64,000 nt of DNA, from the IMG/VR virus record IMGVR_UViG_3300033407_000002, positions 1 to 64,000 of that record; one strand, written 5' to 3'. The translations under genes were made by a program, and so were the position numbers. The notes beneath the pieces were generated by a model, which saw nothing but the letters and a program-made list of their open reading frames with translations, ran no database searches and had not been told where the DNA came from. This stretch comes from a virus. The first letter of the stretch is position 1. Each line of letters opens with the position of its first letter. Of the stretch, positions 3,387 to 56,019 are shown in pieces.

Positions 3387-3417
3387 TACCGACTGGATTA
3401 CCGCCGGAATGTGTCGC
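3387..3417 (-). promoter_or_regulatory. promoter-like motif GCGACA-N18-GTC (copy 1)
   Basis: Minus strand: GCGACA CATTCCGGCGG TAATCCA GTCGGTA. It ends 68 nt upstream of ATG 3319. Confidence 0.6.
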
Positions 3418-3454
3418 CGAAACGGTGATTATTCAGAAAGTTTTTGCGTGAGCG

Positions 3455-3925
3455 TCATGGCTTTCCATACCTCCATAATTCGACAACGTAGCCAAGCACC
3501 CACCATTGAGGCTTCTCTTCGCTGTCACCCTTCGGAAAAATGAACGCCATGTAATGATGATGCGGCGGCATTCCCTGGCAAGATTCAGCAGGCGATAGTC
3601 CATAGAATATCCTCGCGCCATCGAACGATCCAAAACGATCAGTTGCGCCGCCCGCTAAATCTGCTACATCGTTTAGGCTGTTAGCGCCCTTAAAATCTGC
3701 CGATGATGAATCGATCGCCGTTTTGCCACTGTGCTTCAAAAAGCCGTATTTGTAACCCTTCTCTGCCAACTTAATAAACTCTTCGTCTGTCCAGTGCATA
3801 CCACTCACTCCCCTGTTTGACTTTAGTTCGTAGCGTACCGAGTTATGAGTCAACCACGCGCGACCGCACTGGCAGGCGATCTCGTGCGAATGGTTTTGAC
3901 ATATCATGTCTGCAAATTTACTCAT
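3455..3925 (-). CDS. hypothetical protein
   Basis: 156-aa track ORF, the last gene before the promoter/leader region. Confidence 0.55.
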   Translation of the reverse strand: MSKFADMICQNHSHEIACQCGRAWLTHNSVRYELKSNRGVSGMHWTDEEFIKLAEKGYKYGFLKHSGKTAIDSSSADFKGANSLNDVADLAGGATDRFGSFDGARIFYGLSPAESCQGMPPHHHYMAFIFPKGDSEEKPQWWVLGYVVELWRYGKP

Positions 3926-4502
3926 CGCTTAACAACTCCGAGTGAACCTTAAACGCCAGAGCAATGCCGCCCTTTTCCACCGTATCGCCAGTGGTGGCGA
4001 ACTCATTGGCGTAGTCGACCGCAGCCTGCCACGGGTCGCCCATGAACGATCTTTGACCCTGCGCCATGCAGATGCTCGCGGCCTGCTCTTCCGTCGCACC
4101 GTGATCGAACAGCCTCTCCGATAGCCATTCCCCGGAATCCCACAGGGACTTCGATCGGTCCGGCATCATCTCGGCGACCTTGAGCACGCTCGGGTCTTCG
4201 CACTCGAGCCGCTCCTTATCCAGCCTCTGGCCGTTCTCCTCGGCCCAACGCTTGGCTTCCTCTACGGTATACGGCGGCTCGGAGTCCGTGACGTTGTCGA
4301 GACGCCAGCGTTCCATGTCGTGCGCCAGTTCGGATGCTGCGCGGCATTTTTCTTCGTCGTGGATTCCGTGCGCTTCGAGTGCCCACGTGCGCACGATCTT
4401 GGGTGCGATCCGGTCCTTCGCCCGGAGCACGAAAATAGGCTCGTCATCGGCTGCCTTGTTCAGGCAGCTCTCAGCGGAAGCTAGTTCGTTTGCTTTGATC
4501 AC
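3918..4502 (-). CDS. hypothetical protein
   Basis: 194-aa track ORF with 8-nt overlap coupling. Confidence 0.6.
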   Translation of the reverse strand: MIKANELASAESCLNKAADDEPIFVLRAKDRIAPKIVRTWALEAHGIHDEEKCRAASELAHDMERWRLDNVTDSEPPYTVEEAKRWAEENGQRLDKERLECEDPSVLKVAEMMPDRSKSLWDSGEWLSERLFDHGATEEQAASICMAQGQRSFMGDPWQAAVDYANEFATTGDTVEKGGIALAFKVHSELLSDE

Positions 4503-4744
4503 GATAAATCCCCTTTCTTAGTCTTCAAATACGCTAGTGACTCTTCGAACGCCTCTTCGTAGCCGCTGCCGAACCGCTCGTATAGCTTGCGCTGCAGGTC
4601 CTTCGGTAGCCGGAAGTAACATGCCCGACAATGACTCTTCATGCTTTGCTTGGCTTTCCCGCAGCCCTCGCACTTCGTTGAGCCCAACGAGTCGAGTATC
4701 TCAATCCGACGATCGACCGGTATGTCAGCCAATTTATTACCCAC
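4499..4744 (-). CDS. hypothetical Cys-rich (zinc-ribbon-like) protein
   Basis: 81 aa containing CEGCGKAKQSMKSHCRAC; 4-nt overlap with the next gene. Confidence 0.5.
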   Translation of the reverse strand: MGNKLADIPVDRRIEILDSLGSTKCEGCGKAKQSMKSHCRACYFRLPKDLQRKLYERFGSGYEEAFEESLAYLKTKKGDLS

Positions 4745-5063
4745 CTTTCTTGCGTTTCATTCCTGGCGTGTTTTTTCGATGCACGCGAACCATCGTTACC
4801 TGCTTCGACCCGTTGAACTGCTCGGCCTTAACCGTCGCGACCATGTTCCGGCTGAACCGCATCCACAGCCAGCGCGCGTCTCCGACGATACGGCATGCTC
4901 CTGGATCATCTCCGTAAAACCGGCACAGCTCGTCGAATACTTCCGTGACTTCTTCCGTCCATGCTCCGAGATTGTTGTCCCAGCCTTCGGAGTAGATGCG
5001 GACAATCCGAGCTGTTAACTGCCGATCCTTGCCGATTCGGAAGAGGGCGTTGAACTGAGTCAT
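4737..5063 (-). CDS. hypothetical protein
   Basis: 108-aa track ORF. Confidence 0.5.
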   Translation of the reverse strand: MTQFNALFRIGKDRQLTARIVRIYSEGWDNNLGAWTEEVTEVFDELCRFYGDDPGACRIVGDARWLWMRFSRNMVATVKAEQFNGSKQVTMVRVHRKNTPGMKRKKGG

Positions 5064-5127
5064 CGCTTAGCCTTCTTCCGAGATACCGGCTTCATCGGCC
5101 TATCGCCACATTCCGGGCACCAGTGAG

Positions 5128-5403
5128 TCATCCAGCTACCCCGAATTCCTTGGCAGCTTTAATACCCGCCTCGGCCATCGACGCGCGGAACGTCGCCTGA
5201 GCTACGTGCGACATATGGCATTCCATCGCTTCCTTGGCGTCCTGCAATGCCTGCGGCAAAGCCAGTTTGACTTCGGCCCGCAAGCACTGACTGGCTACGT
5301 CGTAGTCCGGCACCTTCAGGCCGTTCAAGCGAATGAAATCAGCGGCGGCTCTCGATGCGGCATCGGCGGCGATACCCACCAGTGCGTCTATGTGCTCTGA
5401 CAT
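5128..5403 (-). CDS. hypothetical protein
   Basis: Track ORF 5128..5577 trimmed to ATG 5403-5401 (MSEHIDALVG...). The upstream part overlaps 5388..5834 and is Arg-rich shadow. Confidence 0.5.
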   Translation of the reverse strand: MSEHIDALVGIAADAASRAAADFIRLNGLKVPDYDVASQCLRAEVKLALPQALQDAKEAMECHMSHVAQATFRASMAEAGIKAAKEFGVAG

Positions 5404-5834
5404 GATTGCTCCTTTGGCCAAACGGCCGGATCGACTTCCAGAATGCGGAGCATGTCCAGTACGTCGCGCCGAGTCTGCACCCTGCACAACTTGATACTGG
5501 CGCCGACTAACTCTTTTCTGAACATCCACCACTGTCCGCGACGGTCTCCGGTACGGTAAAAGATAAAGAAGTAACAATGATCATTCACCTCCATCGCGAG
5601 CGTCGAACACTTGCACCATGACGCAAGCCACGTTCCCGTCACCGGTTGATTGCCGTCTTTCGCGGCTTCCAACGCATCATCCAAGCCCTCGAGCCACTCT
5701 TCGAACCTGCCGCCAGTTCGCAGTTCATCCCACGGCGCGATGTCGCCATTGAGGTGCAGCCCAGCCACACCGGTACTGTTAGCCATCAACGTTTCGACGG
5801 CTAGAAGGCCCTCCACTAAACACTGACTTGACAT
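5388..5834 (-). CDS. hypothetical protein
   Basis: 148-aa track ORF. Confidence 0.55.
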   Translation of the reverse strand: MSSQCLVEGLLAVETLMANSTGVAGLHLNGDIAPWDELRTGGRFEEWLEGLDDALEAAKDGNQPVTGTWLASWCKCSTLAMEVNDHCYFFIFYRTGDRRGQWWMFRKELVGASIKLCRVQTRRDVLDMLRILEVDPAVWPKEQSCQST

Positions 5835-5836
5835 GA

Positions 5837-6331: not shown

Positions 6332-6380
6332 CGCTCTGTCCCTCCCGAACAAGTTTTGGTCGCACGTTAAGTCCCTGATG

Positions 6381-6411
6381 TAACGACCGAATTACTCGGA
6401 CAATGTGTCGC
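6381..6411 (-). promoter_or_regulatory. promoter-like motif GCGACA-N18-GTC (copy 2)
   Basis: Minus strand: GCGACA CATTGTCCGAG TAATTCG GTCGTTA; 50 nt upstream of ATG 6331. Confidence 0.6.
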
Positions 6412-7554: not shown

Positions 7555-7585
7555 TACCGACCGAATTCCACGAGAAGTGTGTCGC
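7555..7585 (-). promoter_or_regulatory. promoter-like motif GCGACA-N18-GTC (copy 3)
   Basis: Minus strand: GCGACA CACTTCTCGTG GAATTCG GTCGGTA; 47 nt upstream of ATG 7508. Confidence 0.6.
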
Positions 7586-7593
7586 CGACAAAC

Positions 7594-7620
7594 GAAAAAA
7601 GCCCGGGATAAACCGGGCTC
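7594..7620 (-). terminator. intrinsic terminator
   Basis: Minus strand reads GAGCCCGG-TTTATC-CCGGGCT followed by TTTTTT, 22 nt after the stop of 7642..8202. Confidence 0.55.
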
Positions 7621-8242: not shown

Positions 8243-8273
8243 ATCCGACCCGATTTCCCGCATGTTGTGTCGG
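8243..8273 (-). promoter_or_regulatory. promoter-like motif (C)CGACA-N18-GTC (copy 4)
   Basis: Minus strand: CCGACA CAACATGCGGG AAATCGG GTCGGAT; 41 nt upstream of ATG 8202. Confidence 0.5.
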
Positions 8274-8869: not shown

Positions 8870-8882
8870 TTGAGTAGCTCCA

Positions 8883-8916
8883 GGCTTGAGGTTTTCGTTT
8901 CCGTGGTAAGTCGGAA
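8883..8916 (-). promoter_or_regulatory. conserved 5'-leader element: hairpin UUCCG[ACUUACCA]CGGAA + AAAACCUCAAGCC
   Basis: Minus strand: TTCCGACTTACCACGGAAACGAAAACCTCAAGCCTGGAG, directly before ATG 8869. A TATATA -10-like box lies at 8930-8935. Confidence 0.55.
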
Positions 8917-9005
8917 ATGATTTGTGGTCTATATAGAAAGGCTTGTTTTCAGGCGGTTCAGGGCGCGAAAAGCGGTTATTTTCTGAAAGGTTTTCGGCTC
9001 TGGAC

Positions 9006-9044
9006 GCTTGAGGTTTTTCGTCGCTCCGATTGGTAAGGTCGGAG
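9006..9044 (-). promoter_or_regulatory. conserved 5'-leader element: hairpin CUCCGA[CCUUACCAA]UCGGAG + AAAAACCUCAAGC
   Basis: Minus strand: CTCCGACCTTACCAATCGGAGCGACGAAAAACCTCAAGC. This is a second, tandem copy upstream of the sigma gene. Confidence 0.55.
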
Positions 9045-9063
9045 GTGTCTTTCGTATACCTAC

Positions 9064-9092
9064 ATTCTAGCAGATTGCCGCGCGGCGAACAG
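9064..9092 (-). promoter_or_regulatory. sigma70-like promoter with extended -10 (TGcTAGAAT)
   Basis: Minus strand: CTGTTC-N17-(TGC)TAGAAT, about 20 nt upstream of leader element 9006..9044. Candidate host-RNAP early promoter for the phage sigma gene. Confidence 0.4.
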
Positions 9093-9134
9093 AGGTTTGA
9101 GCCCATAAAACGCTCGGATTTCGCGATTATTTGC

Positions 9135-13442: not shown

Positions 13443-13473
13443 CATAGACCGATTTACCCAGCAAGTATGTCGC
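13443..13473 (-). promoter_or_regulatory. promoter-like motif GCGACA-N18-GTC (copy 5), drives the ncRNA locus
   Basis: Minus strand: GCGACA TACTTGCTGGG TAAATCG GTCTATG. Confidence 0.55.
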
Positions 13474-14015
13474 TACCCGCCGCGAATTTTATTCCACCGC
13501 CGTATCCGGCGCTCCTCCTTCGACTCCCGGCACTGCTTGGCGAATTCCATGTCGGCCAACCTATCGTCGGCAAGCACCTCATCCCTACGCTTCCTCTCCT
13601 CCGGCCCCTCGTAGACAACGCCATCGCTCTCATACAGTCCGGCCGGCGAACTACCGGCCACCTGTCCAATACCCACGTACGGCGCTACCTCCCGAATCTT
13701 CGCCAGCGAAAGCAGCCCCACATTGCGGCACGATAGCAGCTCCGAATCCGGCACATTCCTAACCGATCCAATCGTCACATAGCCGCGTGACTCCAGACCG
13801 TTGGCCATCCGGGTCGGCAGCACACTTGCCAGCGGCGTACAGTCCTCCATATTCCACTCGCGCGATGACGCCAGATCCTCGGATCGCTTCCGCCGCGCGT
13901 AACGAATGAACTCCCGGCAGGCTTGCACGTACTTCCGCTGCTGCATTAGCACCCGGACTTCACCCATTACCCTGGAGAAGTCCTCCATCCATGCATAGCC
14001 TACTTCTTTGTGCAT
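13473..14015 (-). CDS. RNA polymerase alpha-subunit C-terminal-domain-like (HhH) protein
   Basis: LPTRMANGLESRGYVTIGSVRNVPDSELLSCRNVGLLSLAKIREV aligns by eye with the alpha-CTD pattern L-V-R-S-A-N-C-L...I-G-D-L...E-L-L...N-L-G-K-K-S-L-x-E-I. Track ORF trimmed to ATG 14015 (MHKEVGYAW), 8 nt after the upstream stop. Confidence 0.6.
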   Translation of the reverse strand: MHKEVGYAWMEDFSRVMGEVRVLMQQRKYVQACREFIRYARRKRSEDLASSREWNMEDCTPLASVLPTRMANGLESRGYVTIGSVRNVPDSELLSCRNVGLLSLAKIREVAPYVGIGQVAGSSPAGLYESDGVVYEGPEERKRRDEVLADDRLADMEFAKQCRESKEERRIRRWNKIRGG

Positions 14016-14023
14016 CTGCGCGA

Positions 14024-14344
14024 TTACTCCTGCTCGTCGTACAGGCGGCGCCAGTCCCGTAGCGTGAACCGCTGCCACATGTGACGCTCATAGGACACTC
14101 GACCGAAGGCCGCTATGCCACGCAAAAGTGACCCTCGATTTCCAGTCTCTATCTCGTCCAGCAACCCCAGTCGGTCCCGGCATGTCCGACTGTTGCAGAC
14201 TAACGCCCAGGCCATCAACCCGAAAAACAACAGCCAGCCGAAACCAGTAAGCACCACTACAGCCATGCGATCACCTCTATCCCGATTAAGAGTAGCCGAG
14301 CACTTCAGCCGTTCAATGCTAGGACCGTAGAGTCGGCCAGACAT
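14024..14344 (-). CDS. hypothetical membrane protein (1 TM)
   Basis: Track ORF 14024..14470 trimmed to ATG 14344 (MSGRLYGPS...). TM segment AVVVLTGFGWLLFFGLMAWALV. The start is uncertain. Confidence 0.4.
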   Translation of the reverse strand: MSGRLYGPSIERLKCSATLNRDRGDRMAVVVLTGFGWLLFFGLMAWALVCNSRTCRDRLGLLDEIETGNRGSLLRGIAAFGRVSYERHMWQRFTLRDWRRLYDEQE

Positions 14345-14375
14345 GTCGCGCCGGATCACGATCTGAGCGGTACTC

Positions 14376-14855
14376 TTACCCGTTGTCCTTGCCGGCCGAT
14401 TCTTCCTCGCGCTTCTTTTTGTTCTCTTCGATCTTCTTTGGATCGGGTTTGTACTTGCCGGTCGATTCAATGCCGGTACCCTCGAGCATCGATTGCTTAG
14501 CGTCGGCCTCGGACATGCCGTGCTCCTGTAGAAACGCGACTAGCTTTTCGGCTTCGTCGATTTCGTCTTCTCCCCAGACAACCTCTGGCTCGCCACCTTC
14601 CGGTTCCTCGGCCTCTTCGGCGGTTTCTTCGATGGGTTTCGTTTCCGTAGCCTCGGTCTCAACTGACTCGGTCTCAACGTCCTCGGGCTTACCCTCCTCC
14701 GCGACTTCGGTTTCATCAGCCATCACGTCCTGCGCCGGGCTTTGTTCGTCACCTTCAACTACCAGATCACCAGCAGACCAAAGCATCTTGTTGCTCTGGC
14801 TTTTTACCGGTGGTGTATCGTCGGCTTCATTTACTTCATCTGCTTTTTCCGTCAT
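14376..14855 (-). CDS. highly acidic protein (scaffold-like or decoy-like; function unknown)
   Basis: 159 aa with long Glu/Asp/Thr-rich tracts; 4-nt overlap with the portal stop. Confidence 0.55.
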   Translation of the reverse strand: MTEKADEVNEADDTPPVKSQSNKMLWSAGDLVVEGDEQSPAQDVMADETEVAEEGKPEDVETESVETEATETKPIEETAEEAEEPEGGEPEVVWGEDEIDEAEKLVAFLQEHGMSEADAKQSMLEGTGIESTGKYKPDPKKIEENKKKREEESAGKDNG

Positions 14856-17800
14856 AGCAATAGCTCCGCTTGTACGACCCAGTATGAACCAACCTGTTTC
14901 CCGTCCGACATTATCGGCTTGCGGTCCACGCCTGTAACCTTGTATTTACTGTTCCGGTTCAAAACGACCTCATGCTGGTGCAATGATTCGTGGCCGAGCG
15001 CTACGTCTGGAGACAGCGCCTTAGTCCCTTTCGGCAGACTGATCTCGAACCTCCCTGTCTGGCCAGAGTCCACATTGTTGGCAAATCCATCGGCCACATT
15101 CTGCATCGTAGACGTCGAACCAAACCCTTTATCCGTGAGCGTCTTACCAATAAAGGACTCAGGATCACTGCCGAGCATGTTTTCAAAATCCCCGCCGCCG
15201 CGATAAACCGTCATCGGCTCGGCCAATTCCGGCGCTCTCTGAAATGCCCCGTCCAGATCCTTGATCTTTTGCTTGTTGTCCGAATCCATTTTCTGCTTGC
15301 CGCGCAGACCGTCGTTCATGTCGGAAAAACTACCGCCGGTATAGACCGCGATCGCGTCAATATCCTTTTCCGATGCTCCCTTGGCCCACTCTCCGAACTG
15401 CTTGTTGTGCAGTTCCGCCGAATCCTTGCCGGTCATCGACGAGGTGCCGATCTGGCTTTCCCACTTATGGCCACTGGCCAGCACAAACTCATTTGCCGTG
15501 CGGTCTACCTTAGGTTTTCCGGTTCCGCCTGACTTTAGATCGTCCGCCTGCGCCCGCATCCTCTTGGCATCACCACTCCATTTCGCCGCCAGTTCCGGGT
15601 TTAACTCGGCAAACTTCTTGGACTTGTCCTCGAGACGATCCGCTTCGGCGGTCAGTCCAGCGATCTCCTTCTTGACCTTGGGCGACAGTTCTTTCGGTGC
15701 CTCCTTTTTCGGTTCACCTGGAGCCTCCTCTTTCGGAGCCTCCTTTGGTTTCTCCTTTGTCTCGTCCTTCTTGCCGGCGGCCGGAGTCTCATCGCCACCA
15801 CCCGCTAATTTCGGAAACAGTTTTTTCGCTGAGGCTATGGACCCCGCAGCGGCTGCCACATTGCCCGACGATACCCATCTGCCGTTTGCGTCTCGCGGCT
15901 GATTCGGGTTGTACGCCTTGGCAAGACTGCCGCCGATGGCATCCACAATCGCCTTGACCAACCCGGCATCGACTCCCTTGCTTGCCCCCGCGTCGTGCTG
16001 CCGGAACTCGCTCTGAAGATGACCGACCACCGCCGACAATTCGCGGATGCTCTGACCGACATCATGCGAGACCGCCGCCTTCTGCAACTCCCTCAGTTCG
16101 GCGGACAGCGATTCGACTTGGCTCTTGATCGCAACGGTCTGCGGATCCTCAAAATCCACCCTCTCGGAAAATGCGGACTTGGCCAGCGCAATCCCCGGAG
16201 CACTGACCGGCTCACGTACCGGCCTGGTCGCGCCGCGCAACGGTACCCGGACCCTCTGCCCCCCAACGACCACGACCGCATAGGACAAGCTCGCCGCCGA
16301 ATTCAGTAGTTCATTACGTGGATCCGGTACAGACCCATGCTTCTGAATGTACCCAAGCGTCACATGCGGCTGATAATCCGGGTACGTTTCCACGACCGGT
16401 AGTGCCGCCAAGAGCCGGTCATGCGCTCCGTGGATCGCGGTACCCAGCACTTCGACCTTCAGTACGTTTTCGTCGTCGTTCTCGAACAGGCCACTTGGTC
16501 CGAATGTCACGTCAATCTGATCCAGCCGACGAACCTGGTCCACCACTTCTTTCAGCGGCGTTCCGACGATTCCATACAAGAGCGTTACGTGCGGCCATTC
16601 TTCCAGACCGTCTCCGACCATCGAGTCGGGATCGATCTTGGCTTGTTCGGCTTTGACCAGCTCCAAGACCGACGGCGGCAATTCGAGCATCACTGCTCCC
16701 GGCTTCTCCTCGGCCGGAGTGCCTCGCAATAAGCGGTCGCGTACTTCCCCCTCGGGCAATAGCGCCGCGATCTCCTCAATGCCCGCACCACCCGCTACCG
16801 CCCGATCGTCCCAGTAAACGTCCGCGAACACCTTGCCGCTTGGCATGTCGTTTAGCGCTACGTCCGGATTCTCGTTGATGCCGTCGTACGGTATCCCATG
16901 CGAATCGAGCCAACCTCGCAATAGTTCGTTGTCCTCCCGACAGGTGAAGATCACGATCCGGCAGCCGGCGCGCTTCAGGCGATGGAGCTTATCGACCGCC
17001 GACGATATCGGTTCACCTATTGTCTCGACATGAAACGAGCCGTCGTACTCGGCCAGCGTCCCGTCGAGGTCAACCGCAACGACTGGTCCGGGGCGCTCTG
17101 ACCTTCCGGGAATCGCCTTGGATAGCGACTTGCCGAACGACCGCGCAAACGGCGACGTGAGCCCGGCGGCACTACCATTGCCATTCGCCGCTCCTCCCAC
17201 TCCACCGTCTAGCGGAGGCTGACCCTGCTTCTTTGGCGGCTGCGGTTCGTCGACAACCAGACCAGTCGATGTGACTCGAGCATCGTCCCGCCAATCTCCA
17301 AACGGCTGTAATCCACGGATCGCCCGCCACTCACGCATGGTCCTAACACCGGCGGTCAAGTCGGTCGTTAACTGCTGCTCGATCAGCGTTGGATCGTCTA
17401 GCGGCTGCGTCTCGAACTCGACGCTGACTGTTGCCCCTTCGTCCTGCGCGAGCATCGTCCATTCGCCGCCAAGTAGGTCCAGGTCCCCTTGCACGACCGT
17501 TAGCGTTTGCATCAACGACGCGGCCAAACTGCCATAAGTCATATTGTCCGATAGACCGGCCGCCGATTCACCGACACCATGTCCGGCCAGTATGGACCGC
17601 TGCAACTGATCGAATGCCTGGACGTACTCCATGTCCACCGGCGCGGTATCGCGGCTCAACGTCGCACCGCCTCCCATCGCTATGGCCGATTGGTCGGTAT
17701 CCTCGTCCTGCAACTTTCGGTTGAGCCGCTTTTCCGCCGCGTCCAGCTCCGGCTCGCTGATCGTCTTATCTTCGAACGACACGAACCCCAGCGGCCGGGG

Positions 17801-18999: not shown

Positions 19000-19030
19000 T
19001 ACCGACTGGATTGCGGCCAGAATGTGTCGC
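19000..19030 (-). promoter_or_regulatory. promoter-like motif GCGACA-N18-GTC (copy 6)
   Basis: Minus strand: GCGACA CATTCTGGCCG CAATCCA GTCGGTA, just after the terminase stop. Confidence 0.6.
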
Positions 19031-31815: not shown

Positions 31816-31846
31816 ACCCGACGACCGCAAAAAACACTCAAGTCGC
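31816..31846 (-). promoter_or_regulatory. promoter-like motif GCGACt-N18-GTC (copy 8, weaker)
   Basis: Minus strand: GCGACT TGAGTGTTTTT TGCGGTC GTCGGGT; 40 nt upstream of ATG 31776. Confidence 0.4.
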
Positions 31847-40537: not shown

Positions 40538-40568
40538 CTACGACCGATTTTCTGCGAGCTTATGTCAC
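40538..40568 (-). promoter_or_regulatory. promoter-like motif GtGACA-N18-GTC (copy 9)
   Basis: Minus strand: GTGACA TAAGCTCGCAG AAAATCG GTCGTAG; 18 nt upstream of ATG 40520, with GGAG in between. Confidence 0.5.
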
Positions 40569-42610: not shown

Positions 42611-42641
42611 CTAGGACCGAATGACTCGCCGCCCATGTCGT
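42611..42641 (-). promoter_or_regulatory. promoter-like motif aCGACA-N18-GTC (copy 10)
   Basis: Minus strand: ACGACA TGGGCGGCGAG TCATTCG GTCCTAG, abutting the ParB-MTase start (leaderless or a later start). Confidence 0.45.
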
Positions 42642-43078: not shown

Positions 43079-43109
43079 CATAGACCGCAAAACGGCGAGA
43101 GTGTGTCAC
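43079..43109 (-). promoter_or_regulatory. promoter-like motif GtGACA-N18-GTC (copy 11)
   Basis: Minus strand: GTGACA CACTCTCGCCG TTTTGCG GTCTATG; 19 nt upstream of ATG 43060. Confidence 0.5.
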
Positions 43110-45522: not shown

Positions 45523-46692
45523 TCATACAAAACCGGATTTAACTTCGTCCCCCGGAACAAACAACGCGCTGTTCCTGTAATCGTTATCCTTCCATGCTTC
45601 TTTGTGGTCCTCCCAGCAGCAGCCGTTTAGCCACGGTTCGGGACCCTTTACATAACGTCCCTGGCCGACCGGACTAGCCGCATACTCCGACGCTCGGCGA
45701 ACCAGATGCGATGCCCACGAACCGTCCTCCTCGGGCGGCTCCACCAGCGCCAGAGAATCAATGGCCCTATTCCACGCGACATAGGCCGCGCCCTTGTTGG
45801 TCCGTCGCTTCGGAGGATAGACCGCCCAGAACTCCTCGAACTCCTCCGAGTACCGTCCGGCTTTCTTAGCCAGCAGGCTTTTCATCAGACCGACCAGTGA
45901 CCGCCGCTGCGAAGTGGGGCAGGCGTCAAATAGAATCCTTGCCACTTGCAATTTGTCTGAATCGCTGATGGCCGCTTTGAGCTGCTCTTGGTCGATCTCC
46001 ATGCCCGAGAGCATGGCTTGACCGCTGCACGAGCATTCCGGCTCACTCGGCTCGCTTGGCTTATCGCCGTACAGGTCCGCTAGCTCGCGTGCCACCTCGC
46101 GCCGCGAACTCTCCGATAGACCGCCGACCATTGCCATAATCTTGGCTCTGACCGCTCGCTCCCGGTCCTCTTGCGTCTCTTCCAGGGTCTCTTCCTCAGC
46201 GTCCCGGGCGGTGTCCTGCGGCTCAACTGGCGGACTGCTTGGTCCGTAGACCGCCTCGATATTCTCAGTGATGCGGCTCTGCTCCGGCCGGCTTGGCCGA
46301 TGCTCCGCGATGACTTCCTCTACCTGCTTGACCGTGACCTTTTCACCGCCGCTGACTCTCTGCTTGACTTCCTCGATGGCCTCCTCGGGAACGTCGGACG
46401 AGGACAATTTCACCATGACAGTCAGTCCCAAATGTCCATTTAGTGGACATTTGCCGAACGTCTCGGCCACCCGCATGTAGTTGTTTGCATTGGATTTCTT
46501 GAGTCCCACGTCCTCCTGGAGCCATCTTTCAAACTGTCCGTGCCCCAGTAATTGCTTGGCCCGGATGAGGGATCGGCCTATGTCGATGGCCTCCTCGGCG
46601 ATGGACCCTAGTGAACTGCGGATGCGCTGTGCCAGGTGGCGTACTTCCGATGCGTGACCATTGAGGGACTCATAGACAGAGATCATTTTCAT
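45523..46692 (-). CDS. DUF3102-domain replication-associated (initiator/organiser-like) protein
   Basis: N-terminal AEEAIDIGRSLIRAKQLLGHGQFERWLQEDVGL is DUF3102-like. C-terminal FEEFWAVYPPKRRTNKGAAYVAWNRAI is a phage replisome-organiser-like motif. Confidence 0.6.
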   Translation of the reverse strand: MKMISVYESLNGHASEVRHLAQRIRSSLGSIAEEAIDIGRSLIRAKQLLGHGQFERWLQEDVGLKKSNANNYMRVAETFGKCPLNGHLGLTVMVKLSSSDVPEEAIEEVKQRVSGGEKVTVKQVEEVIAEHRPSRPEQSRITENIEAVYGPSSPPVEPQDTARDAEEETLEETQEDRERAVRAKIMAMVGGLSESSRREVARELADLYGDKPSEPSEPECSCSGQAMLSGMEIDQEQLKAAISDSDKLQVARILFDACPTSQRRSLVGLMKSLLAKKAGRYSEEFEEFWAVYPPKRRTNKGAAYVAWNRAIDSLALVEPPEEDGSWASHLVRRASEYAASPVGQGRYVKGPEPWLNGCCWEDHKEAWKDNDYRNSALFVPGDEVKSGFV

Positions 46693-47220: not shown

Positions 47221-47787
47221 TCACTCTTCAAACCCCGGCAGCGAATACTGCCCCAGTTCCGCCCTCGCTTGTCGGACCGCTTGGCATACGCTGGTCCTCG
47301 CGGCCGCTATTGTCACCCCGAGTTCTTCCGCGATCTGTTGATACGACCGCTGCTCGAGGAACCGCATTCTCAGCACGGCCTGACGCTGGGGCGGCAATCG
47401 GTCCAGACATGCCAGCATGTGCCGGCACGCTTCACCATGGACCAGCTCACTGGACTGTTCGCACCACGGCTCCACGTACGGCAGGTCACCGGAAGTGGCT
47501 ACGATGGCTCGCTCCCGCATGGTCGACCGCTTGCCGCTGAGCCGATGGGTCGCGATCGCCGAACGGAACACGTTGGCGGCGATTTTCAGAATCCAGTTCC
47601 GGCACTCGGCTGCGGACTGAGCCTGGCATCGCTCGTGATTCCGGTAAGCTCGCCAGCAGACCGACTGATAGAGGTCGTCCACATCGAACCGATGGCTCAC
47701 TCCCGAGAGCGCGCCGCGGTAGCGTTGTTCGATGATGGGCTGTACTTCCGACAAGACTTCGACAAGATCGTCCGATCCAACAGACAT
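47221..47787 (-). CDS. ECF-type sigma-70 family sigma factor, paralog 2
   Basis: RFDVDDLYQSVCWRAY...CRNWILKIAANVF (region 2) and LDRLPPQRQAVLRMRFLEQRSYQQIAEELGVTIAAARTSV (region 4). Confidence 0.8.
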   Translation of the reverse strand: MSVGSDDLVEVLSEVQPIIEQRYRGALSGVSHRFDVDDLYQSVCWRAYRNHERCQAQSAAECRNWILKIAANVFRSAIATHRLSGKRSTMRERAIVATSGDLPYVEPWCEQSSELVHGEACRHMLACLDRLPPQRQAVLRMRFLEQRSYQQIAEELGVTIAAARTSVCQAVRQARAELGQYSLPGFEE

Positions 47788-47824: not shown

Positions 47825-47850
47825 CGCGCGAAGCAATCGAGCTTCGCGCG
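47825..47850 (-). promoter_or_regulatory. perfect 10-bp hairpin between the two sigma genes
   Basis: CGCGCGAAGC-(6 nt)-GCTTCGCGCG with no U-run. Possible processing, attenuation or protein-binding site. Confidence 0.4.
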
Positions 47851-47860
47851 AAACAGTCGA

Positions 47861-48397
47861 CTACCTGGACAGTTCACGCACGTTATCAAGTCCTCTGGTT
47901 ACCAGAGTCCGAGCAGCGCTGACGGTTATTCCCATGCGATCGGCGATTGCCGGGTATCCCAGTTCCTCGAGATATCGCATGCGGATAGCGGCCGCTTGAC
48001 GCTGGGGAATTTGGTCGAGACTCCGCTGTACGATTTGGAACTGACCGGCGGTTTCCTCGGCTGCCTCGATCGCCTGTAGTGGCTGCGGCTCTGGAGCAAC
48101 CGCCTCATCGCCGGCATTGCTCTGGACCAGTACCGGTCGCTTCTGGGTCCCTAGTTCCTTCTGCAGTTCCGAGAGCATCGTGTGTTTGGCGATGACCAAT
48201 ACCCAGTTCCGTAGGTCTTCCATGGACTTGGCGCGGCACGTATCGGCGGCTCGGGTGGCTTTCATCGCGGTAACCTGTACCAGGTCATCCGCGTCAAACC
48301 GCGACTGGATCGGCGATAGACGGTTTCTGGCTCGCCGGCGGACTTCCGGGGCTGTCTGCTCCAGCGCGGCATGAATATCGAGGGGCTCGGATGACAC
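47861..48397 (-). CDS. ECF-type sigma-70 family sigma factor, paralog 3
   Basis: RFDADDLVQVTAMKAT...LRNWVLVIAKHTM (region 2) and LDQIPQRQAAAIRMRYLEELGYPAIADRMGITVSAARTLV (region 4). Confidence 0.8.
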   Translation of the reverse strand: MSSEPLDIHAALEQTAPEVRRRARNRLSPIQSRFDADDLVQVTAMKATRAADTCRAKSMEDLRNWVLVIAKHTMLSELQKELGTQKRPVLVQSNAGDEAVAPEPQPLQAIEAAEETAGQFQIVQRSLDQIPQRQAAAIRMRYLEELGYPAIADRMGITVSAARTLVTRGLDNVRELSR

Positions 48398-48429: not shown

Positions 48430-48741
48430 CTACGAAACGTCTTTGGTGACTGGGTTGGATGGTTTGGGACCGCCGAAACCACGCTGGCCGAACTTACCTT
48501 CCGTCATCCGTTCCTGCTCGGTCGTTTTGCCGGCCTTGATGGCCCGCAGCGTTGCGTGATAGCACTTCGGATGGCACTGGCGAATCTGATCCCACTTGAG
48601 GAATTCGCCCTTCTCGCCGAATACAGCGACTAGTGGCTCCAAACATGCCACGCAGAGATGTTCCAGCTCCGCCTTTTCAATCCGCTGCCTTGCTGATTCG
48701 CGCACCTGAAGAACCCTTTTTTCAAACACAGTCACCTGCAT
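48430..48741 (-). CDS. Cys4 zinc-ribbon-like protein, first gene of the leftward early operon (candidate switch regulator)
   Basis: 103 aa. CVACLEP...CHPKCY; paralogous in pattern to the divergent gene 48937..49302. Confidence 0.55.
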   Translation of the reverse strand: MQVTVFEKRVLQVRESARQRIEKAELEHLCVACLEPLVAVFGEKGEFLKWDQIRQCHPKCYHATLRAIKAGKTTEQERMTEGKFGQRGFGGPKPSNPVTKDVS

Positions 48742-48936
48742 GGATGCACCTCAAATGTTGAAACATCCATGCGGAAATTTATTTATCGTCCATATTTTAA
48801 GGAGTGTAAAACAGTTTGTAAACAGGTGTGCAATCGATTTGAGAAAAATGGCTGCAATCTGTTTATTGCTCCGCTCCATAAGTCTTTTCCATACTGGTAG
48901 TTGCGTCCGCGCAAAATAACCCGAAAATGGCCCGTC
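48742..48936. promoter_or_regulatory. AT-rich divergent switch region with operator-like repeats
   Basis: TGTAAAACAG (48805-14), TGTAAACAG (48817-25) and inverted CTGTTTA (48859-65). A 9-bp inverted repeat GCATGGATG/CATCCATGC (48738-46 / 48764-72) spans the leftward start codon. Confidence 0.5.
48794..48822 (-). promoter_or_regulatory. sigma70-type leftward promoter (TTTACA-N17-TAAAAT)
   Basis: Minus strand: -35 TTTACA (48822-17), 17-nt spacer, -10 TAAAAT (48799-94). The -35 overlaps an operator-like repeat. Confidence 0.5.
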
Positions 48937-50723: not shown

Positions 50724-51061
50724 GTAGAACTCCTTACTCACCCCCGTCATGGGAAATTTAAGACATCAAACCTGCTAAGAATTAACGGTTGCGTCGATTT
50801 TGTCCAGCGCCGCGACACGTTTGGTCACTGATAGCAAAACACTTAAATCCCCTAGCGAACGGACCTTGCGCGCGGTTGAAAAGTTGTCGGCTCCCCGGCC
50901 GGCTTCCCTTTGGTGCCCGACTGTCTACCGGCACTCCACGGAGGTACGCCACCGCTCGAGAACTGCGGCAATGAGTGGCAACGATATGGCAACGACGGCC
51001 CCCAAAACAGCCTCATTTCGTGCCCTGCCTAACATGTTTTCCCTGTGAAAACCGCTACCGG

Positions 51062-51110
<49 letters not shown>

Positions 51111-51271
51111 GCCAAAAACCCTAGGAAATCAAGGACTTTCACGCTTTTTAAGAATCAGCCGCGTGGACCAAAAAGCATGACTGGCAACGCTTTTGGCAAC
51201 ACGCCCTTCCAGTCCCTATAAACTTATCGCTTTCCTGAGACGGATTTTCCGGGGAAGTTGAAAGCGATAAC

Positions 51272-52291
51272 ATGCGCAAGCCGTTCTACCGCAAGAGCCG
51301 CAATAAGTGGTTCGTCGTCAACGCCCACGGCAAGTTTCTCCCCCTGCATGAAGATGAGACCGAAGCCTATCGACTCTGGAATCAGATGCTCGAGCTATCG
51401 CGGCAACCCGGAGACCCGCGACTAACCGTCCTGTCGCTCTGTAGCCTCTTCCTGAGCGAACATGAGGTCTTACTTAAACCCGACCGCTACAAGCACCTGG
51501 AGCACTACGTGACGACGTTTGGCGTCGATAAAGGACATCTACTCTGCCGGGACATCACCAAGGCTACAATCGTCTCCTGGGTAGACTCCCATGCGGCATG
51601 GGGCGACTGGTCCCGGCGCGATGCCATCGCGTCCGCAAAGTATGTCTTCCGCTGGGGACTGAGCCACAAGTACATAGCGGACAACCACATAGCCGAACTG
51701 CCCAACCCACGACCGGAATCACGCGAGCGCGTTCTAACCGATGAGGAACACGCTCTGCTGATAACCGCCGCTCGGAAGCAGAAGGAGAACGGCAAGGAAT
51801 TTACGCTAGTCCTCATTGCCAGCCGCTGCGGAGCGCGACCCAAGCAGATCCGCGAAGTGACCGCCGGCAACGTCTTTGGCAATACGTGGGTCTTCAAGAA
51901 GCACAAGACACGCGGCAAGACAGGCAAACCGCTCGTAGTCTACCTACCGCCCTGCCTGGCCGTTCTGACGGCTATGCTGGTCCGCATGCACCCGACCGGT
52001 CCCTTATTCCGCCAAGCGTCCGGAAGGCCCTGGAGCAAGGACACCATCGCACGGCGGCTACTGAGGCTTCGCCGCTCGATCAATTTAGACGATCAGGTAA
52101 TCATGTACGCTTACCGGCATACTTACGCGACCAATGCCATGATGGCCGGATTATCCACGGCGGAGGTCGCAACGCTCTTGGGACATTCCGACACAAGAAT
52201 GGTCAGCGAAGTCTACGGGCACCTGGACCAGAACAACCAGCACATGCTCGGCGTGGCGGCTAGGAGTTACCGGCGCGCCGCAGAGCCTTGA
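51272..52291 (+). CDS. int: tyrosine recombinase / phage integrase
   Basis: 339 aa. C-terminal catalytic region AYRHTYATNAMMAGLSTAEVATLLGHSDTRMVSEVYGHL (H-x-x-R, LGH, catalytic Tyr). Confidence 0.9.
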   Translation: MRKPFYRKSRNKWFVVNAHGKFLPLHEDETEAYRLWNQMLELSRQPGDPRLTVLSLCSLFLSEHEVLLKPDRYKHLEHYVTTFGVDKGHLLCRDITKATIVSWVDSHAAWGDWSRRDAIASAKYVFRWGLSHKYIADNHIAELPNPRPESRERVLTDEEHALLITAARKQKENGKEFTLVLIASRCGARPKQIREVTAGNVFGNTWVFKKHKTRGKTGKPLVVYLPPCLAVLTAMLVRMHPTGPLFRQASGRPWSKDTIARRLLRLRRSINLDDQVIMYAYRHTYATNAMMAGLSTAEVATLLGHSDTRMVSEVYGHLDQNNQHMLGVAARSYRRAAEP

Positions 52292-52577
52292 CCAGCGCCG
52301 GGTGGAGCGGAACCACGTTTACCTTCGGGGGCGGCTCCACGGCCTCGACCGGATGATAGCCGGTTACCCGCGCGAGTGCTTCTTCGGGTATGCGGTACGT
52401 TTTCCGCTTGGTACCCGAGCCGATTGTGACGCTCGGGAGCTTGCCGGCGGCCACCATATTGCGAACGGTGGCCGCTGAGCACTGTAGTTTTTCGGCCACC
52501 TGAGCCGGTGTAAGCATGTTTTCCACGGCATTCCTCCTAACCTTCCCATGGTTAGGACCTACGATTGCCGTGCTCAT
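52260..52577 (-). CDS. xis: excisionase-family (MerR-like HTH) DNA-binding protein
   Basis: MLTPAQVAEKLQCSAATVRNMVAAGKLPSVTIGSGTKRKTYRIPEEAL is the excisionase HTH signature. Convergent with int. ATGA overlap with the upstream stop supports start 52577. Confidence 0.65.
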   Translation of the reverse strand: MSTAIVGPNHGKVRRNAVENMLTPAQVAEKLQCSAATVRNMVAAGKLPSVTIGSGTKRKTYRIPEEALARVTGYHPVEAVEPPPKVNVVPLHPALVKALRRAGNS

Positions 52578-52954
52578 GTCGTGCGGAACACTTCGATATC
52601 ACCCTCAGGCGGCGGTTCTTCCATGATAAGCACCCGGCTCCGCGTATCGGGAAGCCAGTTGAACCACCGGAAGCCAAGGAAGCCTGCCGCATCGGCTACG
52701 TGGTCTATCGTGATCTCGAGGTTTATCGGGTTCTCCGCGCCACCGCTGATATCGTTGGCTATCAACAGAGCCTGCCGACTTTCCGGCTCACCGCCAAGAT
52801 ACTGAAGTAGGAATACTTCATGCGGCGCATAGACATTCTGGCCGGCATAGACGACCAAAGCCTTCATGCCGAGCTTCATTAGCGGCTCCCTGAGGATGTT
52901 CGCATGCACCCTCGGGATGTCTAGTTCGTCTATCGGAGTCCAGTCTATGATCAT
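52574..52954 (-). CDS. hypothetical protein
   Basis: Track ORF 52574..53281 trimmed to ATG 52954 (MIIDWTPIDEL...), 3 nt after the upstream stop. Confidence 0.5.
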   Translation of the reverse strand: MIIDWTPIDELDIPRVHANILREPLMKLGMKALVVYAGQNVYAPHEVFLLQYLGGEPESRQALLIANDISGGAENPINLEITIDHVADAAGFLGFRWFNWLPDTRSRVLIMEEPPPEGDIEVFRTT

Positions 52955-52956: not shown

Positions 52957-53367
52957 CTACCACACTTTGATTCTTGCCTCTACCGTTGTTTGCTCTACCA
53001 CTACCAAGCTCGGGTCCGCCAAGTAAATCATGCCGCCACAATGACACCTTGGCTTCTGTGACACATCCTCCGTTTCCCATGAATTCGCTGAAATTCGGCT
53101 GAGGTGACCGCACAAATAGCACTTTGCGTCCACTATGCCACGCAGTTTCGCTGCCATCGGCAGAACGACTTGCCGCGTACGCTTCTCTCCGCTCTTTTCG
53201 ACGTGACCACGCTTCTTTCCGTCGAGACCACGGCGAAGGATTTCTTGGTGAATCTCCGCTAGAAGTGGGTGGTTCTTCCATGCGTTCGCCATCGCCAAAA
53301 TAGAGGCGTCGGCAAGGGTCGATAACTCTTTGCCCGCATGCTTGCCTGCTGGAATTATCATTTTCAC
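52957..53367 (-). CDS. DUF3820-like protein
   Basis: N-terminus MKMIIPAGKHAGKELSTLADASILAMA resembles the FGK(Y/H)xGxxL...YL motif of DUF3820. Cys cluster at the C-terminus. Confidence 0.5.
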   Translation of the reverse strand: MKMIIPAGKHAGKELSTLADASILAMANAWKNHPLLAEIHQEILRRGLDGKKRGHVEKSGEKRTRQVVLPMAAKLRGIVDAKCYLCGHLSRISANSWETEDVSQKPRCHCGGMIYLADPSLVVVEQTTVEARIKVW

Positions 53368-53406
53368 GTCGCTCCCGTTATTTAGTATCCTGCTCGTTCC
53401 TGCAGG

Positions 53407-53437
53407 AATGGACCAAATATGCCGGGCAATATGTCGC
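53407..53437 (-). promoter_or_regulatory. promoter-like motif GCGACA-N18-GTC (copy 12)
   Basis: Minus strand: GCGACA TATTGCCCGGC ATATTTG GTCCATT; 40 nt upstream of ATG 53367. Confidence 0.5.
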
Positions 53438-53818
53438 TGCTACATGACCCTATATGACATAGTCCTAAATCGCCTAGCGCGCACCGCCCCCTTACATCCC
53501 TGGTTGATGCCACCAGCGTCCGCTGGTAACGGGATAGTTAGTACGCTATAGCTCAGACGATTCAGCCCTGTCCTAGCGCCAGTATGTGTATCAACCGAGG
53601 TCAAGAGTTGTCGGGGTTTGGACAGTGCTCTCACTGGGGTTACTGGCAGTCGGTTTGCTGGGTTGCGATTCCATCACCCAGGGCTTGGGATTTATTAGGT
53701 CCCTCGTGCGATTGGCCGGCCGGTGCTCTTTTCCCCCGCCGTGTTTTAAGAGCTTTCCCTAATTCGCCTATCGCGTTCGCTATTCGTTCGTCGAATCAAA
53801 TTGCTCTACGCGACCTTA

Positions 53819-53853
53819 GAAACGAAAACAGCCACTAGGTGACCCAGCGGCTG
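53819..53853 (-). terminator. intrinsic terminator
   Basis: Minus strand: CAGCCGCT-GGGTCACCT-AGTGGCTG (8 bp, including one G-U pair) followed by TTTTCGTTTC. Confidence 0.45.
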
Positions 53854-54063
53854 CTTTCTATTCTCAGAACCTGATGGTGGGCGTGCGCGGTGAACGTGAG
53901 GAAACCGTGCAGGCACTCAGGTGCGAGCTTCAGATTATACACGTTCGTGCGACAAATCCCACCAAGGATCTTAGGTCACGCGAGAAAAGTTACCGACATG
54001 CGGGACAGACTGCAAGCTCTAGATAGGTCGCATGGACCGGAATACGGAAATTAGTTCTCGGCG

Positions 54064-54303: not shown

Positions 54304-54312
54304 CCGATTGTC

Positions 54313-54528: not shown

Positions 54529-54547
54529 AATCAGCCTGACTCCACTA

Positions 54548-54889: not shown

Positions 54890-54964
54890 TTACATGTGCG
54901 TTTTTTGGTCGTTCCCGTGTCGGCAATCGGCACAGCGGCCGGCGCGGGGTGGGTAGGTGATCAT

Positions 54965-55258
54965 CTAAACTAAGCGATACGAAACGTAATAGGTTTTCTG
55001 GCAATAAAAAGAAGTATCCTGATTGCCGCCCGTGCTGCGTCTGAGCAGTCCATCGAGCCACATTCGCCGCAGCGTCGCGGCCAGGTCGGGGCAGGACGCT
55101 GGGCCAATCGTGTACTGCCTCAGCGCAACACCGAATTCGGCAGCGTACGCCTCTTCCATCTCACCCTCGCCCACCATCACACGCTTGTACGATCGCTTGC
55201 CGATGTAGGCCAAGAGCCAATCACGCTTCTGGTGATATTTACGTCGAGTCTTCACCAT
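54965..55258 (-). CDS. hypothetical protein
   Basis: 97-aa track ORF. Confidence 0.5.
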   Translation of the reverse strand: MVKTRRKYHQKRDWLLAYIGKRSYKRVMVGEGEMEEAYAAEFGVALRQYTIGPASCPDLAATLRRMWLDGLLRRSTGGNQDTSFYCQKTYYVSYRLV

Positions 55259-55261
55259 GGT

Positions 55262-55426
55262 TCAGCCTTCGATTGCCTGCAATGCATCCTTAGGTTTGTT
55301 GGCTGGTGCCAGCCAAACTGTATCCATCCACCAGCCGCTTTTAGTGTCGCCCAAAAAATCCTCTTTCTTTTCGAGCTTGGCCCCCATCTCGATCAGTCTC
55401 TCAGTCGCTTCGCGTTCTGTCATCAT
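55262..55426 (-). CDS. small hypothetical protein (54 aa, not in ORF track)
   Basis: Own translation: MMTEREATERLIEMGAKLEKKEDFLGDTKSGWWMDTVWLAPANKPKDALQAIEG. GGAG RBS; a promoter motif ends 54 nt upstream. Confidence 0.45.
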   Translation of the reverse strand: MMTEREATERLIEMGAKLEKKEDFLGDTKSGWWMDTVWLAPANKPKDALQAIEG

Positions 55427-55479
55427 TCTTCTCCAGGTTAGGCCTGCGGGCCGTGCAAGTTAGTGTTCTGTCGATACCC

Positions 55480-55510
55480 TACCGACTAGATTACCAGCAA
55501 TTTGTGTCGT
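55480..55510 (-). promoter_or_regulatory. promoter-like motif aCGACA-N18-GTC (copy 13)
   Basis: Minus strand: ACGACA CAAATTGCTGG TAATCTA GTCGGTA. Confidence 0.55.
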
Positions 55511-55523
55511 CTTGTTGGCGGAA

Positions 55524-55970
55524 TTACCCGGAAATTTCCCGAATACTCACTCCCCGAATCGGATAGTCCCCACGCCGGCGCATGTACCGCTGAACAGCCC
55601 CCACGCATGGCGGCAACATTACCGGCAGTTTCCGGACGCTAAACCGACCCAAGAACTCCCGGTCAAACTGGCCCCAGTCAAAGCGATGCTTAAGCCAGAG
55701 CATCTGTTCCAGTCCCGGACGCTCGACCATCAGGCTCTGCTTGAGCAGGTCTCCGCTCTGCACCCGATGACAGCGGGAACACATTAAAACCACCACCCTG
55801 CGGTCCTCGATTCGCGGCATGCTCACGATATGGCACCGCTCGATCAGCCACGGCGCATGCCACGGCTCCGGCCGGTCCTCCTGGGTCCTCCCGCAGTACC
55901 AACACCATGGGTAGTCGGTGTCCTGCAACATGCTCGCGTAGCCGCGCGGTTCCGCCAGTGCGTGCTTCAT
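55524..55970 (-). CDS. HNH-like zinc-finger endonuclease
   Basis: 148 aa. CWYCG...ERCHIV...CSRCH resembles an HNH/Cys4 arrangement. Confidence 0.5.
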   Translation of the reverse strand: MKHALAEPRGYASMLQDTDYPWCWYCGRTQEDRPEPWHAPWLIERCHIVSMPRIEDRRVVVLMCSRCHRVQSGDLLKQSLMVERPGLEQMLWLKHRFDWGQFDREFLGRFSVRKLPVMLPPCVGAVQRYMRRRGDYPIRGVSIREISG

Positions 55971-55988
55971 CCGTCAATCCTCCGGTTA

Positions 55989-56019
55989 TCTAGACCGGAT
56001 TATTCGGACGGTATGTCGC
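55989..56019 (-). promoter_or_regulatory. promoter-like motif GCGACA-N18-GTC (copy 14)
   Basis: Minus strand: GCGACA TACCGTCCGAA TAATCCG GTCTAGA; 19 nt upstream of ATG 55970, with GGAGGA in between. Confidence 0.55.

Follow-up and report, generated by a model that had tools for sequence, protein, structure and literature searches.

The window analysed here, a stretch of 64,000 nt of the IMG/VR virus record IMGVR_UViG_3300033407_000002, is phage DNA with a G+C content of 56.9%, and most of its genes are carried by the minus strand. It contains a repeated element of two short blocks at a fixed distance, GACA-N18-GTC, oriented with the genes and located in the gaps between them. These elements are very probably promoters for the host core RNA polymerase when it carries one of three extracytoplasmic function (ECF)-type sigma factors encoded by the phage itself. 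The phage is temperate, because an integrase and an excisionase-like gene are encoded.

A sequence-only reading of the window had listed 14 copies of the element, and the sequences given were found at all 14 coordinates on the minus strand. When every combination of a 4-mer, a gap of 10-25 nt and a 3-mer was counted (approximately 262,000 dyads per strand), GACA-N18-GTC ranked first on the minus strand with 23 occurrences against 3.8 expected (Poisson p=2.5e-11), and 8 occurrences were found on the plus strand. The spacing was shown to be as invariant as had been claimed: N16, N17, N19 and N20 yielded just 0-5 matches per strand. The copies had been described as co-oriented, and a matrix scan of both strands at a threshold of at least 14 bits gave 13 hits on the minus strand and one on the plus strand, compared to a mean of 0.12 hits in first-order Markov random sequence. 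Leave-one-out matrix scoring supported 13 of the 14 listed copies (12.9-35.8 bits) but not the copy at 31816-31846 (-15.1 bits). The list was not complete, as two sites in the window (14319-14349 and 52552-52582) are absent from it. The part of the genome analysed was 81.7 kb, comprising the window and flanks of 9.2 kb and 8.5 kb whose overlaps were identical to the window sequence. As an out-of-sample check, four further full sites, all co-oriented and intergenic, were found in the 17.7 kb outside the window. With a matrix of 19 sites the scores were bimodal; 18 sites, all intergenic and on the coding strand, scored at least 22 bits, and the next best match scored 15.6 bits. The first block had been given as (G)CGACA, and exact GCGACA was present in nine of the 14 copies; the others read CCGACA, GTGACA, ACGACA or GCGACT, which the bracketed consensus allowed.

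The sole sizeable antisense match (45776-45806, plus strand, GCGACATAGG...TTGGTCCGTC, 15.6 bits) was found inside a DUF3102 gene and points toward the sigma genes. Chance could suffice to explain it (about 0.1 such hits expected per strand).

Positions relative to genes were determined with an independent set of gene calls from the European Nucleotide Archive (ENA), covering 55.8 kb of which 10.2% is intergenic. Against this background, 15 of 18 coding-strand hits of GACA-N18-GTC were at least half intergenic (binomial p=8e-13), and none of the five antisense hits was intergenic. Every good site was found on the coding strand, either in an intergenic gap or overlapping the last codons of the upstream gene, and the stop codon of that gene often abuts the site. 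The placement of the sites ahead of genes stood. A distance of 1-136 nt to a ribosome-binding site and start codon had been listed, and 17-145 nt were measured from the motif end to the start codon. The choice of ATG 43060 as a start, made with help of the motif, matches the independent ENA gene call. A loose form, [CT]GAC[AT]-N18-GTC, was present in 20 of 49 gaps of at least 30 nt, the doubtful site at 31816-31846 included. The sites in the window, with scores from the scan with the 19-site matrix unless stated otherwise and with the sub-classes A, B and C that are defined below, are as follows.

3387-3417, minus strand: class A, GCGACACATT...AATCCAGTCGGTA, 34.8 bits; intergenic, 67 nt before ATG 3319
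6381-6411, minus strand: class A, top score, GCGACACATT...AATTCGGTCGTTA, 39.4 bits; 49 nt before ATG 6331
7555-7585, minus strand: class A, 33.1 bits; 46 nt before ATG 7508, with a terminator directly upstream
7593-7620, minus strand: this intrinsic terminator, an 8-bp G+C-rich stem followed by T6, which ends the upstream unit and directly precedes site 7555-7585
8243-8273, minus strand: class A, CCGACACAAC...AAATCGGGTCGGAT, 25.6 bits; just past the sigma-3 stop codon, 40 nt before ATG 8202
19000-19030, minus strand: class A, 33.3 bits; directly after the large-terminase stop codon, with a 109-aa gene and the portal-fusion gene downstream
55480-55510, minus strand: class A, ACGACACAAA...AATCTAGTCGGTA, 29.6 bits; 53 nt before ATG 55426
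13443-13473, minus strand: class B, GCGACATACT...AAATCGGTCTATG, 34.2 bits; 145 nt before ATG 13297
28961-28991, minus strand: class B, GCGACATACT...TTTTCGGTCTGAC, 25.4 bits; 135 nt before ATG 28825
40538-40568, minus strand: class B-like, GTGACATAAG...AAATCGGTCGTAG, 29.9 bits; 17 nt before ATG 40520 of the RecE-like gene
43079-43109, minus strand: class B-like, GTGACACACT...TTGCGGTCTATG, 26.6 bits; 18 nt before ATG 43060
53407-53437, minus strand: intermediate between B and C, GCGACATATT...ATTTGGTCCATT, 29.4 bits; 45 nt before ATG 53361
55989-56019, minus strand: class B, GCGACATACC...AATCCGGTCTAGA, 31.4 bits; 18 nt before ATG 55970
42611-42641, minus strand: class C, exact pattern, ACGACATGGG...CATTCGGTCCTAG, 23.9 bits; before a ParB/methyltransferase-like gene (start 42562)
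14319-14349, minus strand: class C, exact pattern, absent from the earlier list, GCGACATGTC...CTACGGTCCTAG, 22.5 bits; 52 nt before ATG 14266
52552-52582, minus strand: class C, exact pattern, absent from the earlier list, ACGACATGAG...CGTAGGTCCTAA, 15.5 bits; before the excisionase-like gene (start 52526)
31816-31846, minus strand: doubtful site, GCGACTTGAG...GTCGGGT (GCGACT, without A at position 6), -15.1 bits by leave-one-out scoring; intergenic and co-oriented

The terminator at 7593-7620 is immediately followed by the motif at 7585, and a promoter is therefore called for at this position.

The conserved part of the motif spans 27-31 bp, holds approximately 24 bits of information and consists of two unequal blocks separated by an unconserved spacer of 9-10 nt. 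Positions 1-8 read G-C-G-A-C-A-Y-R, with G3, A4, C5 and A6 invariant; the middle of the spacer is G+C-rich, A/T predominates at positions 18-22 (types TAAT and AAAT), and positions 23-27 read C-G-G-T-C, with G25, T26 and C27 invariant. In addition, a purine tetrad (GGAG, GGGA, AGGA and the like) was found at positions 37-40, 10 nt after the GTC, in 12 of 19 sites compared to a background of 8% (p=2e-9), and its presence did not depend on the distance to the start codon (17 to 145 nt). Position 37 is G in 13 of the 19 sites. If C27 is taken as -10, as in sigma-E-type promoters, position 37 becomes +1, and the purine tetrad fits a transcription start. In three sites with distances of 17-18 nt, GGAG would double as a ribosome-binding site. 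The motif was found to have the two-block layout, orientation and position of an ECF promoter and not to be sigma-70-like, as had been proposed. ECF sigma factors favour C-G just upstream of the short -10 element (PMC6372665), and C23-G24 preceding G25-T26-C27 match this preference. A sigma-70 reading of the motif was tried and rejected: although GACA recalls the last bases of TTGACA, no TATAAT-like sequence is present 16-18 nt downstream.

Two sub-classes had been described, and three were seen. Class A, CGACACA-N16-GTCG(G/T)(T/A)(A/T), comprises eight sites in all, and the 14-base pattern CGACACA-N16-GTCGGTA has four exact copies, all of them confined to the minus strand. Class C, CGACATG-N15-GGTCCTA, has three exact copies, again confined to the minus strand, and class B is looser, with CGACA(T/C)A and GGTCT(A/G). 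Positions 7-8 were shown to covary with position 28 (permutation p=0.0017, for positions picked after viewing the data).

A non-coding RNA (ncRNA) locus had been claimed downstream of one copy of the element. When it was sought, the 5' leaders after sites 13473 and 28991 were found to fold no better than shuffled sequences (z=0.5 and 1.0). A gene-free region of approximately 630 nt at 53438-54063 (minus strand), the upstream part of a 702-nt gap (53362-54063), begins with a weak variant of the motif (54031-54061, CCGAGAAC...TTCCGGTCCATG, 6.2 bits) and contains, at 53819-53854, a hairpin with a T-run that resembles a terminator. This region, which showed no Rfam match, could encode a small RNA of approximately 200 nt and may be the locus that was meant.

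Three ECF-like sigma genes had been reported in the window, and all three products pass the TIGR02937 (sigma70-ECF) model, at 48.6, 67.4 and 61.6 bits (cut-off 42.9).

47861-48397, minus strand: sigma-1, ECF-type, 178 aa; TIGR02937 at 67.4 bits, Sigma70_r2 and r4_2
47221-47787, minus strand: sigma-2, ECF-type, 188 aa; 32% identical to sigma-1, with a 64% identical orthologue in locus L153
8300-8869, minus strand: sigma-3, ECF-type, 189 aa; true start ATG 8869 according to the ENA gene call; 39% identical to sigma-1

The three proteins (178-189 aa) contain region 2 and region 4 only (Pfam Sigma70_r2 and r4_2), and a profile built from them matches the structures of sigma-E, SigH and SigW. They are paralogues with 32-39% identity and come closest to an ECF subfamily specific to Planctomycetes, yet score below its cut-off. 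The clade they form is small and divergent, with 59 of 1.84 billion representative proteins reaching E<=1e-10. The nearest matches beyond the query's own cluster showed at most 42% identity, and the best of them, 189 aa long, is possibly sigma-3 of this very phage. A tblastn search of GenBank phages with sigma-1 gave one partial weak hit and no similar sigma factor. No anti-sigma factor was recognised among the neighbouring small proteins, including the Cys-rich 103-aa product of 48430-48741, as they gave no Pfam or NCBIfam match.

Sigma-70-like boxes had been noted upstream of the first sigma genes. The box at 48794-48822 (minus strand, TTTACA-17-TAAAAT, 10 of 12 matches) was indeed the best in 44-64 kb and is located in a divergent region before the operon holding sigma-1 and sigma-2, which extends over 5.8 kb and is free of the motif. 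The second box, at 9064-9092, contains an extended -10 element (TGcTAGAAT, 9064-9072) but is weak, with a poor -35 element, and was not reported by the scan tool. The class B site at 13473 could also supply sigma-3 through transcriptional read-through.

Further features were seen in the gaps next to the sigma genes. The 73-nt gap between sigma-1 and sigma-2 contains a perfect 10-bp G+C-rich hairpin without a T-run (47825-47850, minus strand, CGCGCGAAGC-tcgatt-GCTTCGCGCG), which could set the ratio of sigma-1 to sigma-2. In the 265-nt gap before sigma-3 (8870-9134, minus strand), repeated GAAAACCT-type words were found at 9005-9019, 8983-8995 and 8883-8896, and a looser one at 8940-8952. These words and the extended -10 element before sigma-3 may be regulatory sites.

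A search with the terminase gave metagenomic relatives, among them Aureliella and Pirellulaceae genome bins, which suggests a member of the Pirellulaceae (Planctomycete) as host. Three relatives support that the motif and the sigma clade are conserved together. In locus L153 the operon is organized as in the window (sigma, sigma, 114-aa gene, DUF3102 gene, DnaB gene), with protein identities of 42% for sigma-1, 64% for sigma-2 and 59% for the DUF3102 product. Within 5.7 kb, G[CT]GACACA-N16-GTC was found four times on the coding strand and not on the other strand, and at this level of protein identity (42-64%) only the blocks of the motif are kept. One of these copies (231-261) is located 60 nt before the sigma operon, the layout of autoregulation. 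In the Pirellulaceae genome bin L151, with a 42% identical terminase and a sigma factor of the phage-sigma clade, GTGACACG...AATCTAGTCGGTA was found in the gap directly after the terminase gene, syntenic with the window site at 19030. Locus L144 (identical to L145 and L146) contains a 53% identical terminase and the gene order terminase, portal, sigma, and its sigma factor belongs to the phage-sigma clade (E=1e-16). The window's own motif was not found in L144; instead, GCGCAATC-N16-GTC(T/C)AC is present, and its GCG (positions 1-3) and GTC (positions 25-27) keep the identical geometry. Copies were found after the terminase gene (syntenic), before the sigma gene (site 14414), again in the layout of autoregulation, and in two to three other gaps, and CAATC-N16-GTC occurs six times on the coding strand and not on the other.

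Between motif copy 231-261 and the first sigma gene (321) of L153, a sigma-70-like TTGCAT-16-TATAGT was read at 272-300. In this relative, promoters of the host type and of the phage type may therefore both serve the sigma operon.

Outside these relatives, no clear motif was seen in L152, and none was found around distant sigma homologues (at most 29% identity or short matches) in genome and metagenome scans, including one in a Planctomycetota bin. IMG/VR searches with sigma-1, the terminase and an alignment of the three sigma factors gave no relatives. An IMG/VR scan with the strict class A pattern gave no hits, and a scan with the looser 14-base pattern gave singletons alone, with two matrix hits in none of 120 loci.

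The mechanism that we propose is as follows. Sigma region 4 would recognise block 1 (positions 1-8) as the -35 element, and region 2 would recognise block 2 (positions 23-27), with the A/T-rich positions 18-22 before it, as an ECF-type -10 element; the start of transcription would lie approximately 10 nt beyond the C of GTC, in the purine run at positions 37-40. The sigma-70-like promoter at 48794-48822 would drive the operon with sigma-1, sigma-2 and replication genes, and the phage sigma factors would then activate approximately 20 further transcription units. Such early-then-cascade timing is plausible. The three sub-classes would most simply correspond to the three paralogous sigma factors, and we tentatively consider, with somewhat less than even confidence, that each class is served by one sigma factor and told apart by positions 7-8 and 28-30. 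The sigma factors of the relatives, L153 excepted, are about equally distant from all three window sigma factors, and sequence similarity therefore assigns no sigma factor to a class.

Several observations weigh against this interpretation. The -35 element common among ECF promoters is of the AAC type, from which GCGACA in block 1 differs. The motif is absent from the gaps upstream of all three window sigma genes, and many bacterial ECF sigma factors are autoregulated (PMC7826278). A few intragenic or antisense matches at 13-16 bits were found (39887, 45776-45806 and two outside the window), and no clear motif was seen in the short stretches examined of L147 and L149. As to the classes, duplication of sites may account for part of the covariation, since the resemblance of sites 3417 and 19030 extends into the spacer; class B lacks uniformity, and features of different classes are combined in several sites; and the functions of the downstream genes do not sort by class, as replication, recombination and structural genes are spread across classes.

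The element could also be a stoperator-like binding site by which a phage regulator, e.g., a lysogeny repressor, blocks or modulates transcription from the gaps. A temperate phage with sites that are intergenic and co-oriented, as stoperators are, would agree with this, and GAC/GTC (in class A CGAC/GTCG) forms a short inverted repeat approximately two helical turns apart. However, the symmetry is just 3-4 bases, with none beyond GAC/GTC in classes B and C, and the sites show two unequal blocks, an unconserved spacer between them and, at a constant distance of 10 nt, a purine block. Three sub-classes parallel three sigma paralogues, the motif at 7585 follows a terminator where a promoter is called for, and L144, with a diverged sigma factor, keeps the geometry and alters block 1, as co-evolution of sigma factor and promoter predicts. 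We therefore regard a regulator site as unlikely.

Quite unlikely as well is that the promoters are read by an ECF sigma factor of the Pirellulaceae host and that the phage sigma factors serve otherwise or read other sites. Planctomycetes carry many ECF sigma factors (PMC7826278), the phage sigma factors are nearest to a subfamily from this phylum although below its cut-off, and none of their genes in the window appears autoregulated by the motif. On the other hand, the motif travels with the phage sigma clade (L153, L151 and L144) and changes in block 1 where the sigma factor has diverged, whereas it is absent around the distant homologues, that of the Planctomycetota bin included; inspection by eye of the 29 motif-free gaps that could serve the phage sigma factors revealed no other repeated motif. 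Finally, a repeat without a role in initiation (RNA processing or stability, recombination at module boundaries, or a replication or packaging signal) is very improbable, since, although sites often abut an upstream stop codon as is also typical of module boundaries, the 5' leaders fold no better than shuffled sequences and match no Rfam family, conservation is confined to two short blocks with a free spacer rather than a contiguous repeat, the distance to the start codon varies (17-145 nt), and L153 keeps the blocks alone. Promoters for the phage's own sigma factors remain the preferred reading.

The proteins of the window match exactly on the ENA contig ERZ27256991:k141_4721222 (100,221 nt), on which the offsets of two genes differ by 100,221 minus 141. 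The genome is therefore circular, 100,080 bp in size, and was assembled with a 141-nt k-mer overlap at the contig ends. A second, near-identical assembly is a Joint Genome Institute contig of 100,207 nt. Besides RecE-like, RecT-like and DnaB proteins, DNA methyltransferases and the excisionase-like protein, the window encodes the following products.

19036-20745: large terminase
14852-18544, minus strand: 1230-aa protein with RNA-ligase-like and Alt-like ADP-ribosyltransferase matches, the latter at the C-terminus
51272-52291, plus strand: tyrosine integrase
52526 (start): excisionase-like gene with an HTH_17/excisionase match

A portal domain is present in the L144 and L147 counterparts of the 1230-aa protein. 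Megablast of the portal region against GenBank phages gave no match, and the large terminase showed at most 32% identity to the terminase of any cultured phage. No tRNA gene and no Rfam family were found in the window, nor at relaxed thresholds in two gene-free regions.

On the plus strand at 51060-51114, 160 nt upstream of the integrase gene, the sequence resembles the 3' half of a tRNA gene, with a T-arm (GCACG-TTCAAAT-CGTGT) followed by an acceptor strand as read by eye; ARAGORN and Rfam reported nothing at this position. It is a candidate for the core of the attachment site, which would make the integrase a tRNA-targeting one. A 1012-aa helicase/primase-like protein (24240-27278, minus strand) seemingly contains an intein-like insertion directly after its P-loop (GAGKAQPLD-C-KVLTPTGW..., read from the translation). 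A 201-aa protein (13473-14078, minus strand) showed a borderline match to the C-terminal domain of the alpha subunit (24.4 bits, cut-off 23.8), and this protein and the Alt-like domain of 14852-18544 are candidates for products acting on the host RNA polymerase.

The phage provides a clean, testable regulon in which approximately 20 sites of three promoter flavours are combined with three sigma paralogues; sigma factor and promoter change together in relatives, and the sites improve the annotation of gene starts and operons for this phage group. If one sigma factor indeed serves each class, a temperate Pirellulaceae phage would have a self-contained three-channel transcription program, perhaps a cascade, and a Planctomycete phage would for the first time have its transcription program described; literature searches gave no description of such a phage or of any Planctomycete phage transcription program. 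The pairs would then form a natural set of closely related, mutually orthogonal ECF sigma factors and promoters, the relatives would show how such pairs co-evolve (GCGACA compared to GCGCAATC in identical geometry), and compact orthogonal sigma-promoter parts would be possible if the class specificity holds.

Compared to bacterial ECF (group 4) systems, such as E. coli sigma-E, B. subtilis sigma-W and M. tuberculosis SigH and SigL, the phage sigma factors likewise contain regions 2 and 4 only, and their paralogues may likewise differ in specificity. They differ from these systems in that they form a small, divergent, phage-borne clade, in that the search for an anti-sigma factor found none and the sigma genes in the window lack autoregulation by the motif, and in that the -35 element is GCGACA(Y)R and not the usual AAC-containing block. 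The promoters share the two blocks at fixed spacing and the short -10 element with GTC after C-G (PMC6372665). Phage ECF sigma factors are not captured by the ECF classification (PMC7826278).

Asymmetric, intergenic sites that are all oriented with transcription are also known as the stoperators of temperate cluster A mycobacteriophages (L5), where the repressor binds a single block of 13 bp. The many sites of the present temperate phage are alike in these respects but consist of two blocks with 16 nt between them, are followed by a start-like purine block and are accompanied by three sigma genes that are probably cognate.

In phage SPO1, gp28 serves the middle genes and gp33/34 the late genes. 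Host sigma is described for the early genes, followed by successive phage sigma factors with their own consensus (PMC13401047), and the proposed start with the host sigma factor followed by phage sigma factors would resemble this order. The SPO1 sigma factors are not ECF-type paralogues of one another, and in the present phage gene functions do not sort by classes A, B and C, for which any temporal order would be hypothetical.

Phages 7-11 (gp47) and phiEco32 (gp36) offer a parallel to the proposed mode of action, as a phage sigma factor directs the host core polymerase to a phage-specific consensus, which is bipartite in 7-11, and early genes use the host sigma-70, as they may in this phage. 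The late promoters of Salmonella phage 7-11 read GTAAtg-16-aCTA, and between 7-11 and phiEco32 the promoter positions are kept and the consensus is changed, which was shown experimentally (PMC8948821); similarly, the window and L144 keep positions and geometry and change block 1. Those two phages are virulent and have one sigma factor and approximately 6-8 mapped, experimentally proven promoters, whereas the present phage is temperate, with three paralogous ECF sigma factors, approximately 20 predicted sites and three sub-classes. Phage sigma factors with cognate promoters have long been known (SPO1, phiEco32 and 7-11), and what appears to be new here is that they are of the ECF type, present as three paralogues, and belong to a temperate phage with a probable Planctomycete host.

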